53,224 nucleotides of DNA. Source: Alphaproteobacteria bacterium. GTDB taxonomy: Bacteria; Pseudomonadota; Alphaproteobacteria; UBA2966; CAIVPW01. The position numbers and the translations under genes were made by a program. Every line of letters begins with the position of its first letter. Position 1 is the first letter of the stretch. The stretch is from the NCBI GenBank assembly GCA_018658465.1, contig JABHVE010000014.1:1-53224 (forward strand), written 5' to 3'. The notes under the pieces were generated by a model that was not told the origin of the DNA, did not search any database, and saw nothing but the letters and a program-made list of their open reading frames with translations. This document shows, piece by piece, positions 1,545 to 9,197 of the stretch.

Positions 1545-2372
1545 CTAGAGGGCCGGGACCAGACCCAATCCGTCGTCACCCTCGACCGGCGGCTCTGGGT
1601 CAGGCTCTTCCTCGGCCAATTCGGCGAAGCGCAGCAGTTCGGCCATCAATTCATCGAACGTGCCGGACTCCAGGGTGAAGCCATCGGGCAAATTCAGAAC
1701 CAAGCCTTCTTCGGTCGCCAGCAGCTCAGCCTCGGCGATCAGCGCCGCCAACAGTTCCTCATCGACAATCAAGACCTCATCTTCGCCACCACCCGGGGGC
1801 GGTGCTGGGGGCTCGTCGCCCGCCGGGGGCTCACCACCCGCCGGAGGTTCATCACCTGCTGGAGGCTCATCTCCTGCTGGGGGCTCATCATCTACGCCAC
1901 CCTCGTTCGGCGGTTCACCATCTGCACCGTCATTTGTTGGGTCTTCACCTTCGCCGCCGTCACCGGCGCCGGGCTCATCGCCTCCTGGGGGCTCGTCGCC
2001 TGGGGGTTCGCCTCCTGGGGGCTCGTCACCCGGGGGTTCGTCACCTGGGGGTTCGTCACCTGGGGGCTCGTCACCCGGGGGTTCGTCGCCTGGGGGCTCG
2101 TCATCCTTTGGATCATCGTCATCTTTTTCATCGTCGTCATCCTTGTCCTTGTCATCACCAGCTTCTTTCGCTTGTTGCTTCTCCAGCACCTCTTCCAGGC
2201 GCTCTCTGGCCGCCTCTGGTGCTTTTTCCAGCACCCGCTCCAGTGCTGCCGCGGCCTTGCCCTGAGCATGGGCGGCGTTGTCGATGGCGGACAGGCCCAG
2301 AACCAATGCCGCAGCGCCAGCCCACACCAAGCCTTGGGATAGAGACGTATTGTTCATCAAGGTACGTTTCAT
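1545..2372 (-). CDS. Secreted acidic Pro/Gly-rich repeat protein, function unknown
   Basis: GGAG RBS before ATG 2372; hydrophobic signal ending AHA-Q; short helical segment; poly-Asp; GDEPP and GDEPPA arrays; acidic C-terminus. Confidence 0.75.
   Translation of the reverse strand: MKRTLMNNTSLSQGLVWAGAAALVLGLSAIDNAAHAQGKAAAALERVLEKAPEAARERLEEVLEKQQAKEAGDDKDKDDDDEKDDDDPKDDEPPGDEPPGDEPPGDEPPGDEPPGDEPPGGEPPGDEPPGGDEPGAGDGGEGEDPTNDGADGEPPNEGGVDDEPPAGDEPPAGDEPPAGGEPPAGDEPPAPPPGGGEDEVLIVDEELLAALIAEAELLATEEGLVLNLPDGFTLESGTFDELMAELLRFAELAEEEPDPEPPVEGDDGLGLVPAL
1803..1892 (-). repeat. 5 x 18-bp coding tandem repeat (GDEPPA-like)
   Basis: Translates as DDEPPA-GDEPPA-GDEPPA-GGEPPA-GDEPPA. Confidence 0.9.
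1986..2105 (-). repeat. 8 x 15-bp coding tandem repeat (GDEPP-like)
   Basis: Plus-strand units such as GGGGGCTCGTCACCT and GGGGGTTCGTCACCT; translates as DDEPP, GDEPP x5, GGEPP, GDEPP. Confidence 0.92.
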
Positions 2373-2519
2373 GGGTCTCTCCAAAATGGTTCGAAGCACC
2401 TCCGCGGTGCCCCGGTCCTGTAAACGTAGGGATGCGGACTCCGCCAAAGAATTGACGGATGAACATTTCGACCCGGATTTTGTGTTACCCCGTCACAGGT
2501 GACAGGCGTTTTGGCCGCC

Positions 2520-3088: not shown

Positions 3089-5116
3089 ATGGATCGCAAC
3101 CAAACATCGTTGCTGCGCGGAATGGCCCTTGGGGCGATTGCAGCCATCGCTGTGGCCTTCCCGGCCCACGCCCAGACATCGAGCCTGGGAGGCGCCATCG
3201 CCGCCCTGACCGATCAACTGTCTGCATTTGCCACATCCTTGTTCGAAGGCGAAAGCCTTTCCGTTTGGCTGGGCGCGCAATTTGAGGCGCCTCAGGGGCA
3301 GATTTGGGTTGATCTGGCGTGGATCACCGCAGTCGCCGTTATTGTGGGCTGGGGGCTGGCGTTCGTTTCCCGCCTCGCACTGAGCTCCACCATCCGCCGC
3401 GTCGAGGTAGGCGAGGCCCGCGTGTGGTGGGTGCGCATCCCCATGGCCTTGGGCCGTTTCCTGCTGGTTTCGATCCCCGCCGTCGTGTTCGCCGCAGTCG
3501 GGGCCGGGGTGCTGGTCTATTTAGCCCCCGATGACGTGGTGCGCCAGGGAGCCTTGACCTTTATTTCCTTCGTCACCGCAGCGTGGCTTGGGGTGGCATT
3601 GGCCAAAGCGATTTTCGCCCCTTTGGTGCCGTCGTTGCGCCCGGTCCCCTTGGGCGATGCCCAAGCCGTATATCTGTTTGTCTGGTCCCGACGGCTGATC
3701 AATGTCTTGGTGTTCAGCGCCGTGGTGGTGGAAATCGCCGAGGTCATGGCCATGCCCCAATCGGCCACGTTGCTGCTGGCAAAGGCATTAGGGCTAGTCG
3801 TGGCGTTGTTGATCGTCACCGTGATTTTGCAATCCCGAGCCACCGTCGGCCAGTGGATCGAGGGCGAAAAGGGTGGCCCCGCCGGATGGCGGCTGTTCCG
3901 AGCCCGTCTTGGAGATGTGTGGCACGTTTTGGCGATTCTGTACGTGGCCACCGCCTGGACCGTGTGGACCATCGCGATCCCGGGGGGGTTCGACTTCGTC
4001 GCCGGAAACACTGCCTCCACTGCCGCTATCGTCGCCGTGGCGTGGGTCGCCTCCTGGGCCACGCGCCTTGGATTGCAACGGTTGTTCGGGATCGGCAAAC
4101 AAATTCGCGCGCGCTATCCGTTTGTCACGGAACGGGCAAACTTATACCTGCCCATGGTACGCAGAATTTTGGTGGCGGTGATCCAAGTGATTGCCGGACT
4201 CACCATTTTACGGGTTTGGGGCCTGGATGTATGGAGCCTGTTGGCCACCGATCTTGGGCGCGCCCTGTCTGAACGGGCCATTGGTATCGCCGTGATATTG
4301 GCGGTGGCCTTGTTGGCCTGGGAAGCTTCCAGCGCCGCCATCCGCATCTACATGGAACGCACCGACGACGACGGACAACCCATTGTCCGATCCAAACGAG
4401 CCAGGACATTGTTGCCGCTGATCCGTAATGCTCTGTTGGTGCTGATTGGGGTGATGACCGCCATGGTGATTTTGGCGGAATTGGGGGTCAGCATCGGTCC
4501 CTTGTTGGCCGGGGCTGGGGTCGCCGGATTGGCCGTGGGATTTGGTGCCCAAACCCTGGTCAAAGACTTCATCACCGGAATGTTCATTCTGATCGAAGAT
4601 TCCATTCACGTGGGGGATGTTGTGCGGGTGGCCGGTAAGGCTGGCACCGTAGAGGCCCTGACCGTGCGCACCGTGCGCATGCGGGATTTGGGCGGTGTCG
4701 TCCACACCGTGCCGTTTTCCAGCGTCGACGTGATCGAAAATATGACCAAAGAGTATTCCCAGGCGGTCATCGATGTGGGGGTGGGCTACCGGGAAAACTA
4801 TGACGAGGTGGTGGAGGTTCTGAAGGCCATCTCGGAAGACATGCGCGCCGACCCAGATTTGGGCCCCAAAATCTTGGAGCCTATGTTGGTGCTGGGCCTA
4901 AACGAATTAGCCGATTCAGCGGTTATGATCCGGGTCCGGATCAAAACGGAACCCTCTCAACAATGGGCCATGCGCCGTGAATTCAATCGCCGGGTCAAAC
5001 AGCGGTTTGATGAACTGGGGATCGAAATCCCCTATCCCCACCGCACCGTGTATTTCGGCGAAGACGCCCAAGGCAATGCCCCGCCGCTGCGCCATCGCGC
5101 GGAGCCTAAACCCTAG
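3089..5116 (+). CDS. Large MscS-family mechanosensitive channel (YbiO-like)
   Basis: Signal peptide, many TM helices, then MscS core [26 protein letters not shown]...VGDVV...GIEIPYP. Confidence 0.92.
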
Positions 5117-5118
5117 GG

Positions 5119-5445
5119 CTATTCAATAAAGGCGTTGGCCCCGTCGTTTGCCGCGCGTCTTGACAAGGTGTCGGAAAATTCAAGGCCTTCACACAGATCC
5201 ATCACCCGGGTTTGGGCGCGGCTGGCGTTGGTCACCGCATCCTGGAAATGTTGGCGGTCCAGCATCATGAATACGGCGCCACAGGCCATGCGGTTTTGCT
5301 CGCGCACATTCGCTTCGGCGTAGACCGCACCGACCAGCATGGCCAACAACACCCAGCCGATCGGCGTTTTAAGGAACGACGCCACATTGCCACGGGACCA
5401 CCAGGGCTTGAGTTCAATGGAGGCTGTCAGGGTGCGGTCGTTCAC
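5119..5445 (-). CDS. Small membrane-anchored two-Cys protein B2 (108 aa), paralog of 5860..6201
   Basis: GTG start overlaps the upstream TGA (GTGA). Shares FLKTP-x-x-WV, CGAV-x-x-MLDRQ and CEG with B1. Confidence 0.75.
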   Translation of the reverse strand: MNDRTLTASIELKPWWSRGNVASFLKTPIGWVLLAMLVGAVYAEANVREQNRMACGAVFMMLDRQHFQDAVTNASRAQTRVMDLCEGLEFSDTLSRRAANDGANAFIE

Positions 5446-5798
5446 AGGACGCTCACATTGCCGCGTCTGGTGCGGCACACCTGCGGGAAGCTGGCCAAGG
5501 CACCATCGGACCAATGGGCCCGTCCGCCAGTACGGCAGTCGGACAATGGCCACCGGTAAACATAGTTTTCGGGGATGCGCCCGGCGCATATGTCAAAGGC
5601 GATGTTTTCGTACCGACCGACAAAATATTCTGGGATACCGGTGGCACCGACGACCACCGGGCTTAGGGCGACACAGGTTGCCGAAAAATTTCGGTCATTG
5701 CGGGCCGCGGTGGCGGAAACAAATGCAATCAGCACCACGATCCCCCAGGTGACTGGGTTGGTGGCCAGTTTGCGATTAAAACCGATCCAAGAAAGCAT
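5442..5798 (-). CDS. Small membrane-anchored four-Cys protein A2 (118 aa), paralog of 6198..6557
   Basis: N-terminal hydrophobic helix. Shares SPVVVG, VGRYE, WPLSDCR-x-GGRA-x-WSDG, FPQVCR and RGNVSVL with A1. Confidence 0.8.
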   Translation of the reverse strand: MLSWIGFNRKLATNPVTWGIVVLIAFVSATAARNDRNFSATCVALSPVVVGATGIPEYFVGRYENIAFDICAGRIPENYVYRWPLSDCRTGGRAHWSDGALASFPQVCRTRRGNVSVL

Positions 5799-5859
5799 GT
5801 TTGTTTGTTACCACGCTGGGGGCGACTAACAATCCCAATCCCCGCACATCGCTAAATTT

Positions 5860-6201
5860 TTACTCGGGTTCGAACCAATCCGCACCGACCAAACCACCGC
5901 GCAGATCCAAACTATCCGGCTGGGCAAAACCTTCGCAGGCCCGCATGAACCGGGCTTTGGTGCGGGAAACCCCATCGTATTCTCCGGTGAACAATTGCCG
6001 ATCAAGCATGACCGACACTGCCCCGCAAACGACCCGGGTTTCGGCCCGCACCGAGGCATCCATGGAGGCAAACCCAACCAGGGCCGTCAGCATCACCCAC
6101 GCCAAAGGCGTTTTCAGAAACGCTTTCAAATGGCCACGCGATGGCGGCCACAAGGCGATGCTCGCCGGGATGCGAGTCTGTGGCGCGGCGCTATCGGTCA
6201 T
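5860..6201 (-). CDS. Small membrane-anchored two-Cys protein B1 (113 aa)
   Basis: ATG overlaps the stop of A1 (ATGA at 6198-6201); TM segment LAWVMLTALVGFA; clear paralog of B2. Confidence 0.75.
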   Translation of the reverse strand: MTDSAAPQTRIPASIALWPPSRGHLKAFLKTPLAWVMLTALVGFASMDASVRAETRVVCGAVSVMLDRQLFTGEYDGVSRTKARFMRACEGFAQPDSLDLRGGLVGADWFEPE

Positions 6202-6557
6202 AGGACGCTCACATTGCCGCGGTTGTGACGACAAACCTGGGGGAACGCGGCCAAAGTGCCATCGGACCACATGGCCCGTCCCCCTGGGCGGCAGTCAGAC
6301 AGCGGCCAGGCGTCTATGTAATTGTCGGGAATGCGTTCACGTCCGCACGTTTCATAGGCGATGCGTTCGTACCGGCCCACATAGTACCCGTCTGCACCCG
6401 TGCCACCCACCACAACGGGGGAGATAACCTCGCAGGTATAAGTCAGATGCAGATCACTGCGGCTAGCCGCAGCACCAGCGATCAGCACCAACACCAGCGC
6501 CCCAAGGGTCACAGGGTTGGTCACAAACGAACGATTTATTCCGAGCCAAGAAAGCAT
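6198..6557 (-). CDS. Small membrane-anchored four-Cys protein A1 (119 aa)
   Basis: Start MLSWLG aligns with the A2 start MLSWIG; TM helix; four conserved Cys. Confidence 0.8.
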   Translation of the reverse strand: MLSWLGINRSFVTNPVTLGALVLVLIAGAAASRSDLHLTYTCEVISPVVVGGTGADGYYVGRYERIAYETCGRERIPDNYIDAWPLSDCRPGGRAMWSDGTLAAFPQVCRHNRGNVSVL

Positions 6558-6636
6558 GGGACCGTCATACCACAAGTCATGCCACAAATTGAATGGTTGG
6601 GTGAACTAGGCCCAGGGCCTTTAGTGAAACGTTGCC

Positions 6637-7740
6637 CTAATTGGCGGCTGGAGATGGGCCGTCTGCGCCGCCAGACAAGTTTCCCGAAACCTGGGGATCG
6701 CTGATGATTGGAAAATCCAGCCAGAATTCGCTGCCCTTGCCCATTGCGCTGTGAAACCCAATGCGCCCACCCATGTCTTCGACCATCCGCTTGGTCAGGG
6801 TCAAACCCATGCCCGTGCCTTCAAAATCTGAGTTTTCCTGACCCAATCGCTGAAAGGGCTCAAACACTTGGGACTGCAAATCTTCGGGGATTCCTTGGCC
6901 GGAATCCTTCACCGTGATGCGCAAAGACAAGTCTTGGGTTTCCAACGTGGAAAGGCTGACCGAGCCGCCGGATTGGTTATATTTCACGGCATTGGACAAC
7001 AGATTGAGCAACGCCTGTTTCAGCGCCACCTTATCAACGCTGATAACAGGCAACGATCCCGCCCCGACATTGTCGTGAAAGGTCACGCTGCCCCGGTCAG
7101 CCAAGGCCTCGGCGACCACCGCACATTCATGGATGACTTGGCCCGGATCCACATCCGAGACCTCCAAATCATGGGTGCCGGATTCGATCTGGGCTAGATC
7201 CAACAGGCCGTTGATCAGCCCCATCAAATGAGTGCCAGAATCCAAAATATGCTCGATGGCCTCGTCTTGGGGTTTGCTCAAGGGCTGGTAAACCCCGGCT
7301 TGCAGCATTTGGCCAAACCCCAAAATCGCGTTCAGGGGCGTGCGCAACTCGTGGCTCATGGACAGCAAAAATTTTGATTTGGCGACGTTGGCCGATTCGG
7401 CAGCGTTGCGTTCTTGGGAAACCCGCACGACGGTCACAAGTGTTGCGGCGGCCCAAACGGCAAATCCAGCCAACATGCGGTTCATCACCACCACCCAGGC
7501 CACTCCGCCCGGGGGCGACAGCAAGTACCCGGCGACAATCAGGCCAGTGGCAATGGCAGCCAGTACTAGAACGGCTCTTTTTTGGGGAAACCACCACCCC
7601 ACCATGACCAAAGCCACATAGGGGACTCCGCCCGCCACCCCCAATGGCAAAGACAAATCCACGAAAAAGACCAGCCCGGCAACGACGACAGCCGAGGTAA
7701 TCAAAAGTCTTGGATCAAGATGGGAGCGTGTCGGAATCAT
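6637..7740 (-). CDS. Membrane sensor histidine kinase (about 4 TM, HisKA, HATPase_c), orphan
   Basis: H-box SMSHELRTPLNAILGF, N-box NLLSNAVKYN, G1 DSGQGI, F-box FEPF, G2 GTGMGL. Confidence 0.95.
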   Translation of the reverse strand: MIPTRSHLDPRLLITSAVVVAGLVFFVDLSLPLGVAGGVPYVALVMVGWWFPQKRAVLVLAAIATGLIVAGYLLSPPGGVAWVVVMNRMLAGFAVWAAATLVTVVRVSQERNAAESANVAKSKFLLSMSHELRTPLNAILGFGQMLQAGVYQPLSKPQDEAIEHILDSGTHLMGLINGLLDLAQIESGTHDLEVSDVDPGQVIHECAVVAEALADRGSVTFHDNVGAGSLPVISVDKVALKQALLNLLSNAVKYNQSGGSVSLSTLETQDLSLRITVKDSGQGIPEDLQSQVFEPFQRLGQENSDFEGTGMGLTLTKRMVEDMGGRIGFHSAMGKGSEFWLDFPIISDPQVSGNLSGGADGPSPAAN

Positions 7741-7916: not shown

Positions 7917-7992
<76 letters not shown>

Positions 7993-8345: not shown

Positions 8346-9197
8346 TTGCGATCCGATAAGATATTTGTGTGGCTGATCGGGGCTTTCCTGATCGGCGGCG
8401 TCGCCGTTGTGTCGACAATTGCCATCCGCACGGTCCCCTATGGTGGCGATCCCGAGGCGGCATTTGCAGCCGAAGATTACGACGCGGCTCTGGAATTCTG
8501 GCAGGCCCAGGCAGTGGACGGTGACGCACGGGCACTGATCCAAATTGGCTTGATGTACGAAAATTCATTGGGGGTTTTCGAAGATTTCCCCAAGGCCGCC
8601 GAATCCTATCTCCGCGCCGCCGAACTGGGCCAAGCCGATGGCTATTCGAAACTGGGTGCGTTGTACGAACAGGGCCGGGGGTTCGACACAGACATGGACG
8701 AAGCCATGCGCCTGTACGGAATGGCAGCGGACCAAGGCGATGCCCAGGGGCAATTCAAATTGGGGGCATTTTACGAGATTGGCCGCTATACCCAACGGAG
8801 TTACGACGAAGCGGCCCGGCTTTACGCATTGGCCGCGAATCAGGGGCATTCGGACGCCCAGGTCAGCCTTGGATCGCTGTATTTGGCCGGGCGCGGCGTC
8901 GAGCGAAATAATCGCGAAGCGGCAAAGTGGTACCGCGCCGCAGCCGAGGGCGGCAATGCTGGGGGCCAGTTCAGCATGGGGATTTTGTTCGAAAACGGAA
9001 TCACGGTTCCCCGCGATTATGTCCAGGCATATGCGTGGTATCGTCTGGCTGCGGTTCAGGAATACGGGGGCGCGGCCCGAAGCTTGTCCACCATCGAAGA
9101 ACAGCTGTCGCCGCCGGAGCTAGAACGGGCCAAAACATTGTCCGTGGAAATGTGGGAACTGTATGTGGCCCCGTTCCAAAATGGGGCCGAAGGCTAA
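8346..9197 (+). CDS. Sel1-repeat protein with N-terminal membrane anchor
   Basis: Repeated A-x-x-x-LG-x-x-Y-x-x-G-x-G...A-x-x-WY-x-x-AA-x-x-G pattern. TTG start is uncertain. Confidence 0.92.
   Translation: MRSDKIFVWLIGAFLIGGVAVVSTIAIRTVPYGGDPEAAFAAEDYDAALEFWQAQAVDGDARALIQIGLMYENSLGVFEDFPKAAESYLRAAELGQADGYSKLGALYEQGRGFDTDMDEAMRLYGMAADQGDAQGQFKLGAFYEIGRYTQRSYDEAARLYALAANQGHSDAQVSLGSLYLAGRGVERNNREAAKWYRAAAEGGNAGGQFSMGILFENGITVPRDYVQAYAWYRLAAVQEYGGAARSLSTIEEQLSPPELERAKTLSVEMWELYVAPFQNGAEG

Follow-up and report, generated by a model that had tools for sequence, protein, structure and literature searches.

A coupled and duplicated gene pair

The DNA analysed here, referred to below as the window, is a stretch of 53,224 nucleotides (nt) covering contig JABHVE010000014.1 of an Alphaproteobacteria bacterium (assembly GCA_018658465.1). 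Its minus strand carries an array of four small genes, which a first-pass annotation of the sequence had described as two diverged copies of a two-gene cassette of small cysteine-containing membrane proteins. We refer to the genes, in the order of transcription, as A1, B1, A2 and B2, and to the genomes compared as G000 (the source of the window), G001 (a congener, its sister species) and G002 to G009 (other members of the family). The array comprises the following features:

6198..6557, minus strand: A1, 119 residues, with the N-terminal motif LG.NR.F..NPVT, a hydrophobic segment and cysteines 42, 71, 89 and 109
5860..6201, minus strand: B1, 113 residues, with the motif FLKTPLAW, a hydrophobic segment and cysteines 59 and 89; its ATG overlaps the A1 stop codon
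5442..5798, minus strand: A2, 118 residues, a paralogue of A1
5119..5445, minus strand: B2, 108 residues, a paralogue of B1, with a GTG start overlapping the A2 stop codon
6202..6221, minus strand: A1/B1 junction 20-mer within the last codons of A1, identical to 5446..5465 and containing the putative B1 ribosome-binding site GTGAG
5446..5465, minus strand: A2/B2 junction 20-mer, identical to 6202..6221
6568..6573, minus strand: GTGGTA, 10-16 nt upstream of the A1 ATG, found by aligning three upstream regions
5809..5814, minus strand: GTGGTA upstream of the A2 ATG, from the same alignment

The open frames bore out this ABAB layout, its coordinates and both 4-nt overlaps between stop and start codons (ATGA at 6198-6201 for A1/B1, GTGA at 5442-5445 for A2/B2). 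At the protein level, A1 and A2 are 61% identical (E 3e-54) and B1 and B2 46% (E 8e-28), while nucleotide identity between the cassettes amounts to 65% for A and 52% for B. The ratio of nonsynonymous to synonymous substitution rates (dN/dS) was 0.23 for A1 against A2 and 0.15 for B1 against B2, and it was 0.13 for both A1 and B1 when compared to their G001 orthologues. Quoted overall as 0.13-0.27, and thus not near 1, the value that the first-pass annotation had named as speaking against its proposal, these ratios show that A and B are genuine genes under purifying selection. The antisense frames over the locus are by-products of its high guanine-plus-cytosine (GC) content. Because GC content is even across the region and equal to that of the flanks, there is no island signal.

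The junction between A and B is conserved as DNA. Its 20-mer, which had been reported as identical in both copies, proved to be the longest identical run shared between the two cassettes, and it also precedes the B start in G001. Since the 20-mer is unchanged despite a synonymous divergence (dS) of ~1.0-1.3 elsewhere, the junction is conserved at synonymous sites. Within it, GTGAG lies six bases ahead of the B start codon, and A genes of other genera have ..CAGGTG.. or ..GGGT.. in their final codons, equally far from the next start, so that the 3' end of A probably doubles as the ribosome-binding site of the following gene. Throughout the arrays of the family, A-to-A and A-to-B junctions are mostly overlapping or abutting. 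The GTGGTA hexamer precedes all three A starts of the genus (A1, A2 and the A gene of G001 in locus L033) in upstream sequence that otherwise differs, and is possibly a ribosome-binding or regulatory element.

Metatranscriptome contigs from two RNA libraries of one study matched the locus without mismatch at 5020-5267, 5391-5647 and 6583-6721, the second of these spanning the A2/B2 junction. Because DNA can occur in such RNA libraries, the matches are a weak sign of transcription; the parts of the locus without cover in the two RNA runs are uninformative either way. Sequencing runs containing the locus are labelled marine or seawater metagenomes.

Conserved features of the A and B proteins

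We aligned 33 A and 23 B sequences, which underlie the conservation reported here. A proteins begin with the motif L-G-x-N-R-x-F-x-x-N-P-V-T-[WL], followed by a hydrophobic segment of ~16 residues and then by ~85 more; the two are often joined by an A-x-A-like site (AVRA, AVKA or AVHA, then D). Invariant positions are C42, R75, P77, W84, P85, C89, Q107 and C109. Of the four cysteines that the first-pass annotation had called invariant, C42, C89 and C109 thus hold up, whereas C71 is conserved in at least 90% of the sequences; the WPL..C..GG..S.G..A..PQ.C block recognised at the same time is conserved family-wide. In B proteins, a variable N-terminal tail precedes the motif F-L-[RK]-T-P-L-A-W, after which come a hydrophobic segment and ~60 further residues, with R52, C59, D67 and C89 invariant. 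Both B cysteines are therefore as initially described, whereas the accompanying block CGAV..MLDRQ occurs in this exact form within the genus and takes the form C-[AG]-A...D.Q across the family. The N-terminal hydrophobic segment, previously given as a transmembrane helix in both proteins, is real, but it may be either a retained anchor or a cleaved signal peptide.

The proteins lack a lipobox, their first cysteine lying 10-12 residues past the hydrophobic segment in the contexts T-Y-T-C (A) and R-V-V-C (B), and CxxC is absent from every aligned A and B sequence. The genome encodes DsbA, DsbB and TatC and thus has the means for oxidative folding.

Conservation in both A and B is highest at the N-terminal motif, where the two families also resemble each other. 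Comparing their full-length profiles with hhalign gave a probability of 58 (E 1e-4). When restricted to the motif and hydrophobic segment, the comparison reached a score of 22.2 (none of 20 column shuffles exceeded 12.3) and a probability of 82, whereas the periplasmic parts scored 10.5, a value reached by 3 of 20 column shuffles. We therefore rejected the idea that A and B are full-length paralogues, as only the N-terminal motif and hydrophobic segment are common to both. The motif was absent from all other open frames of the genome (31,051 frames), and we likewise rejected it as a general sorting signal. Its strong conservation argues for a role beyond that of a disposable signal peptide, as far as can be read from sequence.

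In some respects, the start of A resembles a twin-arginine translocation (Tat) signal, the consensus of which, S/T-R-R-x-F-L-K, stands ahead of a hydrophobic region. The A motif N-R-x-F-L looks like R-R-x-F-L-K with the first arginine replaced, a basic residue often precedes the possible A-x-A cleavage site (AVRA, AVKA or AVHA), a few A copies in relatives carry RR, and TatC is encoded in the genome. However, most A copies have a single arginine (N-R-S-F in A1, N-R-K-L in A2), no NCBIfam model matched, and B carries FL[RK]TP without an arginine pair.

Searches for related families, folds and genomes

The first-pass annotation had recognised no known family, and this was borne out by every collection searched. 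In Pfam and NCBIfam, the four window proteins hit no family, the lone row standing at chance level (E 0.38), and Pfam-A and NCBIfam scans of all 33 A and 23 B sequences singly returned nothing better than E 0.029. No match was found in PADLOC and no family match in PHROGs (best E 0.11), and profile searches against PDB sequences gave best E values of 0.12 for A and 0.76 for B. We took the weak NrfH and amphinase rows (E 0.12-0.38) to be chance. Fold searches were made with the full A model, the B model being too weak for searching. Foldseek found 0 matches at E <= 0.001 for the whole A model against PDB, none of the 48,161 chains compared by VIA-align reached Z >= 5 (highest Z 4.0), and the viral folds of BFVD likewise yielded 0 matches at E <= 0.001. 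The ESM Atlas held nothing usable for A; for B its best score was 0.81, a value often reached by shuffled proteins. Full-text keyword searching of the literature gave no paper, which cannot show that nothing is in print.

Among ~5.8 billion clustered proteins, A1 matched 10 clusters and B1 6, and a profile of the 23 B sequences matched 37 clusters, all unnamed or hypothetical. An exhaustive A profile search of 1.84 billion representatives yielded 9 rows with E <= 0.001, of which we judged P0026-P0028 to be spurious, as these are long repeat proteins with 4-10 weak stretches each. Another of the rows, the metagenomic protein P0025 of 91 residues, joins an N-terminus like that of the histidine kinase encoded next to the array to an A-like C-terminus, both shortened; it possibly represents a deletion variant, or else an artefact of assembly, from a related organism.

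In sequenced genomes, A was present in 10 of 10 members of the family (G000 and all 9 others, from four genera) and in 0 of 31 genomes outside it (0/13 in the sister family, 0/18 in other families of the class). B occurred in the same 10 family genomes and was missing from all 13 of the sister family. The A/B module is a vertically inherited core feature of one family of uncultured, small-genome marine alphaproteobacteria, represented here by metagenome-assembled genomes.

Array architecture across the family

Array orders were derived from hidden Markov model matches on open frames and are given in the direction of transcription. Because the arrays of G001, G002 and G009 reach contig ends, their counts are minima.

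G000: ABAB
G001: AB (one pair in the assembled stretch)
G002: AB
G003: AAABBB
G004, G006 and G008: AABAB
G005: ABAB
G007: ABB
G009: AAAB

Every B copy, and every A copy but three in G007, lies within a single array per genome. As an observation on one of these arrays, the first A copy of G006 (L027 8415-8735, minus strand) matches the profile only from position 11 and has no usable start upstream, possibly because this copy is decaying.

In a maximum-likelihood tree of the 33 A sequences, the genus clades were recovered with support values of 100/99 (g1), 96/97 (g3) and 94/92 (g4), and the three G009 A copies grouped at 100/99. The split between A1 and A2 falls inside the genus of G000; in that clade, A2 groups with P0013 and P0014, two A2-type proteins from metagenomes. 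Since A copies cluster by genus, duplication or homogenisation has been recurrent and lineage-specific. According to these data, the proposal that the pair is kept in two diversified versions does not hold for the family: it is specific to G000, with one pair in the assembled stretch of G001. The proposed obligate linkage of A and B stands as far as co-location in 10 of 10 family genomes is concerned, but not as a fixed one-to-one cassette, as relatives carry AAABBB, AABAB, AAAB and ABB. In G007, A copies also occur on other contigs without B.

A predicted A:B complex

We modelled the proteins with AlphaFold2 (AF2). For A1, the model had a mean predicted local distance difference test score (pLDDT) of 84.3 and a predicted template modelling score (pTM) of 0.65, and comprised a helix at residues 15-52, a second helix at 62-75 and a mostly non-helical C-terminal part. 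B1 alone was poorly defined (pLDDT 64.3, pTM 0.34), which would fit a subunit that needs a partner.

To predict the complex, we used A1 residues 30-119 and B1 residues 46-113, leaving out the hydrophobic segments, with unpaired alignments of our own. Three runs scored 0.72, 0.69 and 0.72 and agreed in at least 76% of contacts, whereas each of 3 controls scored 0.00. The score mark had been calibrated on known cases: 58 of 80 solved complexes attained it, as did 2 of 110 mismatched pairs, counts that apply only roughly to alignments of our own. In the complex model, the interface is formed by A 34-71 and B 48-89 and includes A41-42, A70-71, B58-59 and B88-89. The cysteine pairs of both chains (A42 and A71; B59 and B89) thus face the modelled contact, and their positions on antiparallel helices fit intrachain staples, although the two chains may instead be linked by a bond between them or share a metal site. 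The idea of an A/B complex, advanced in the first-pass annotation, is in this way supported by a model for the periplasmic parts of A1 and B1, which predicts that A and B bind each other.

These data also bear on the possibility that A and B share an operon but work as separate small secreted proteins, with no complex between them. Unequal copy numbers, some solitary A copies and the fact that the complex is a model would be in keeping with independence. However, B never occurs apart from A in the 10 genomes, the stop and start codons overlap, the complex score differs from that of the controls (0.72 vs 0.00), and B folds poorly on its own. We consider independence of the two proteins unlikely.

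Genomic neighbourhood and rival explanations

Upstream of the array in transcriptional terms, the window contains the following features:

6637..7740, minus strand: histidine kinase (HisKA and HATPase_c by Pfam), on the strand of A1 and 79 nt upstream of it
7917..7992, plus strand: tRNA-Thr(TGT), a landmark upstream of the array that is conserved in the genus
8346..9197, plus strand: Sel1-repeat gene (Pfam Sel1, E 6e-31), lying beyond the kinase and tRNA-Thr genes as seen from the array; its product carries a hydrophobic segment at the N-terminus

On the other side, a convergent MscS-type channel gene follows the array. A divergent Sel1-repeat gene stood beside the array in 8 of 8 loci in which the contig reaches that far. 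Elsewhere in the window, an open frame of 300 residues (1545-2447, minus strand) matched no Pfam family; part of it is conserved in G001 (77% over 78 residues).

The position of the kinase raises the possibility that A and B supply a periplasmic sensor domain that it would itself lack, as accessory proteins of intramembrane-sensing kinases do. The two are on the same strand without a terminator-like site between kinase and A1, the N-terminal third of the kinase is hydrophobic with no long extracytoplasmic stretch, and P0025 fuses a kinase-like N-terminus to an A-like C-terminus. Against such a role, a full-length match to the kinase was found in G000 only, the other 9 family genomes having a match to the catalytic core or none. 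In G001, the tRNA-Thr gene lies directly upstream of A and there is no kinase in that place, and the window annotation places no response regulator beside the kinase. A functional link to the kinase is weakened by these findings and the sensing role raised in the first-pass annotation is left without support; we judge a co-sensor function highly unlikely. Matches to the kinase core at E <= 1e-20 numbered 15 in G000 compared to 0-3 in each of the 9 relatives, which suggests an expansion of sensor kinases in the species of G000.

A different neighbour recurs in the other genera. In 8 of 8 loci from the three genera other than that of G000, a CcdA/DsbD_TM gene lies ~0.1-2.8 kb downstream of the array; in G003 alone it follows directly on the same strand, after 74 nt. 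This would suit a redox or metal module in which the four interface cysteines (A42, A71, B59 and B89, all within the modelled contact and invariant or nearly so) hold a metal or iron-sulfur (Fe-S) centre or a thiol switch that is serviced by the CcdA-type transporter. Partners of CcdA and DsbD of the ResA, CcmG and TlpA type carry a CxxC active site in a thioredoxin fold. A and B resemble them in being putatively exported or membrane-anchored, in their conserved cysteines and in their nearness to CcdA; they differ in having neither CxxC nor a thioredoxin-like fold or family match, the A model being a helical hairpin with loops. Linkage to CcdA is, moreover, lost in the genus of G000, whose CcdA orthologue sits with DUF2089 and SHOCT-like neighbours on another contig, which weakens a functional link. 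In G004, an opposite-strand pair of DUF2089 and SHOCT-like genes is annotated between array and CcdA, and, in other genomes, tblastn matches at the equivalent position point to such a pair as well. Because this pair intervenes, co-transcription of array and CcdA is possible only in G003. Finally, cysteines on antiparallel helices would equally fit plain intrachain disulfide staples. Taken together, we regard a redox or metal module as unlikely. The same holds for a more specific version, an improbable one in our estimate, in which A and B would form a membrane-tethered periplasmic four-helix module with two cysteines from each subunit in its core, acting as a metal or Fe-S site or reversible thiol switch, and the N-terminal motif would be a private membrane-assembly signal. 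If this were true, the family would have evolved a novel type of redox or metal sensor, or carrier, in its envelope and tuned it by repeated gene amplification.

Three further observations concern the CcdA region. Between array and CcdA, G004 has a 437-residue minus-strand open frame, rich in Arg and Ser and without a family, which we dismissed as an antisense frame of the DUF2089 and SHOCT-like genes. We gave up tracing the origin of the array by synteny, since none of the other genes recurs around CcdA in the four sister-family genomes compared. In relatives, 2-3 tandem CxxCxxCC (PF03692) paralogues are convergent to CcdA (L025 2516-5509; L026 1907-3576; L028 5479-8065).

In gene organisation, the nearest analogies to the A/B arrays would be antenna polypeptide pairs and toxin-immunity pairs, whose defining features, as far as they show in sequence and neighbourhood, we looked for and did not find. 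The light-harvesting alpha/beta pairs of purple bacteria (pufBA, pucBA) are small single-helix proteins, encoded by coupled and often tandem genes, which form heterodimers and are core to their lineage. A and B are similar in being adjacent, coupled small-protein pairs that occur in tandem, are core to a lineage and are predicted to form a heterodimer. In the antenna proteins, a conserved histidine of the membrane helix ligates bacteriochlorophyll. A and B, in contrast, have no invariant histidine and no Pfam antenna match, possess periplasmic parts of 60-85 residues with cysteines, and have no photosynthesis genes nearby.

For a toxin-immunity system, A would be a secreted disulfide-rich toxin, B its membrane-anchored immunity protein, and the arrays collections of cognate pairs. 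Like bacteriocin and microcin genes, A and B are small, adjacent and coupled, stand in multi-copy arrays and encode products predicted to bind each other, the last point being compatible with the idea but non-specific. In addition, a lone A of G007 lies beside methyltransferase and Mrr-type nuclease genes. Toxin-immunity pairs are, however, usually patchy and diversifying, unlike A and B, which are vertically inherited and syntenic in all 10 family genomes, have the GC content of their flanks and evolve under purifying selection. Bacteriocin and microcin pairs also have a dedicated exporter or processing gene alongside. The annotated neighbours in G000 and two relatives were the MscS-type channel, histidine kinase, Sel1, TetR, CcdA, DUF2089 and CxxCxxCC proteins, and no exporter, peptidase or lysis gene adjoined the array in these genomes. 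Array orders such as AAAB and AAABBB leave A copies without an adjacent cognate, and no defence (PADLOC) or phage (PHROG) family matched. We regard a toxin-immunity function as unlikely.

A probable family-specific envelope module

On balance, we think it probable that A and B constitute a new, family-specific heteromeric envelope module, made from coupled genes and assembling as A:B in the periplasm. Translational coupling would provide A and B in a fixed proportion, and the shared N-terminal motif and hydrophobic segment would direct both proteins into or across the inner membrane, as we infer from their sequences. At the outer face of the inner membrane, they may then assemble into an A:B heteromer, in which the model packs A helices ~34-52 and ~58-75 on B helices ~48-69 and ~80-90. 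The C-terminal part found only in A (WPL..C89...PQ.C109) would form a separate head, probably locked by a disulfide, that could act as the working surface for an envelope or periplasmic partner. Such a module would have been inherited vertically and amplified in tandem repeatedly.

Several findings weigh against this picture. The ratio of A to B copies is unbalanced, being 3:1 in G009, 3:2 in G004, G006 and G008, and 1:2 in the array of G007. G007 also carries three further A matches on other contigs without a B match (L017 283-639, plus strand; L022 169-531, minus strand; and a third on contig C69); the one that adjoins the methyltransferase and Mrr-type nuclease genes has no B beside it, and another, with the motif S-R-R-F-F-L, lies upstream of DUF2127 and ABC-ATPase genes, again with no B. 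Binding of A to B rests on one model made with our own unpaired alignments, in which the pLDDT of the partner is only 59-60. Export and orientation of both proteins are read from sequence features alone, and the disulfides of A and B are ones that we infer. The tie to the Sel1-repeat gene, lastly, is one of adjacency only, and no functional clue joins the module to a process.

As to what the envelope module does, we rank a structural or adaptor role ahead of the toxin-immunity, redox or metal and kinase co-sensor explanations. With low confidence, we consider it most likely that A and B serve the envelope as non-enzymatic structural or adaptor proteins, perhaps together with the Sel1-repeat neighbour.

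We regard the A and B protein families and their predicted assembly as categorically new, a label that covers families and assembly and not function. No relative of A or B was detectable outside the family among ~5.8 billion clustered proteins. We judge the significance to be moderate, given that nothing yet ties A and B to a process and that lineage-restricted small proteins of unknown role are common. Both proteins are small enough to be expressed, purified and solved, and A is likely to have a new fold. If their function is an ordinary one, for example that of a structural envelope filler, the gain would be one new annotated family; if the cysteine cluster is a redox or metal site, they would represent a new type of periplasmic module. 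For the organisms themselves, the fact that a genome of ~2 Mb keeps 2-6 copies under purifying selection implies that A and B are a real, and probably abundant, component of the envelope.

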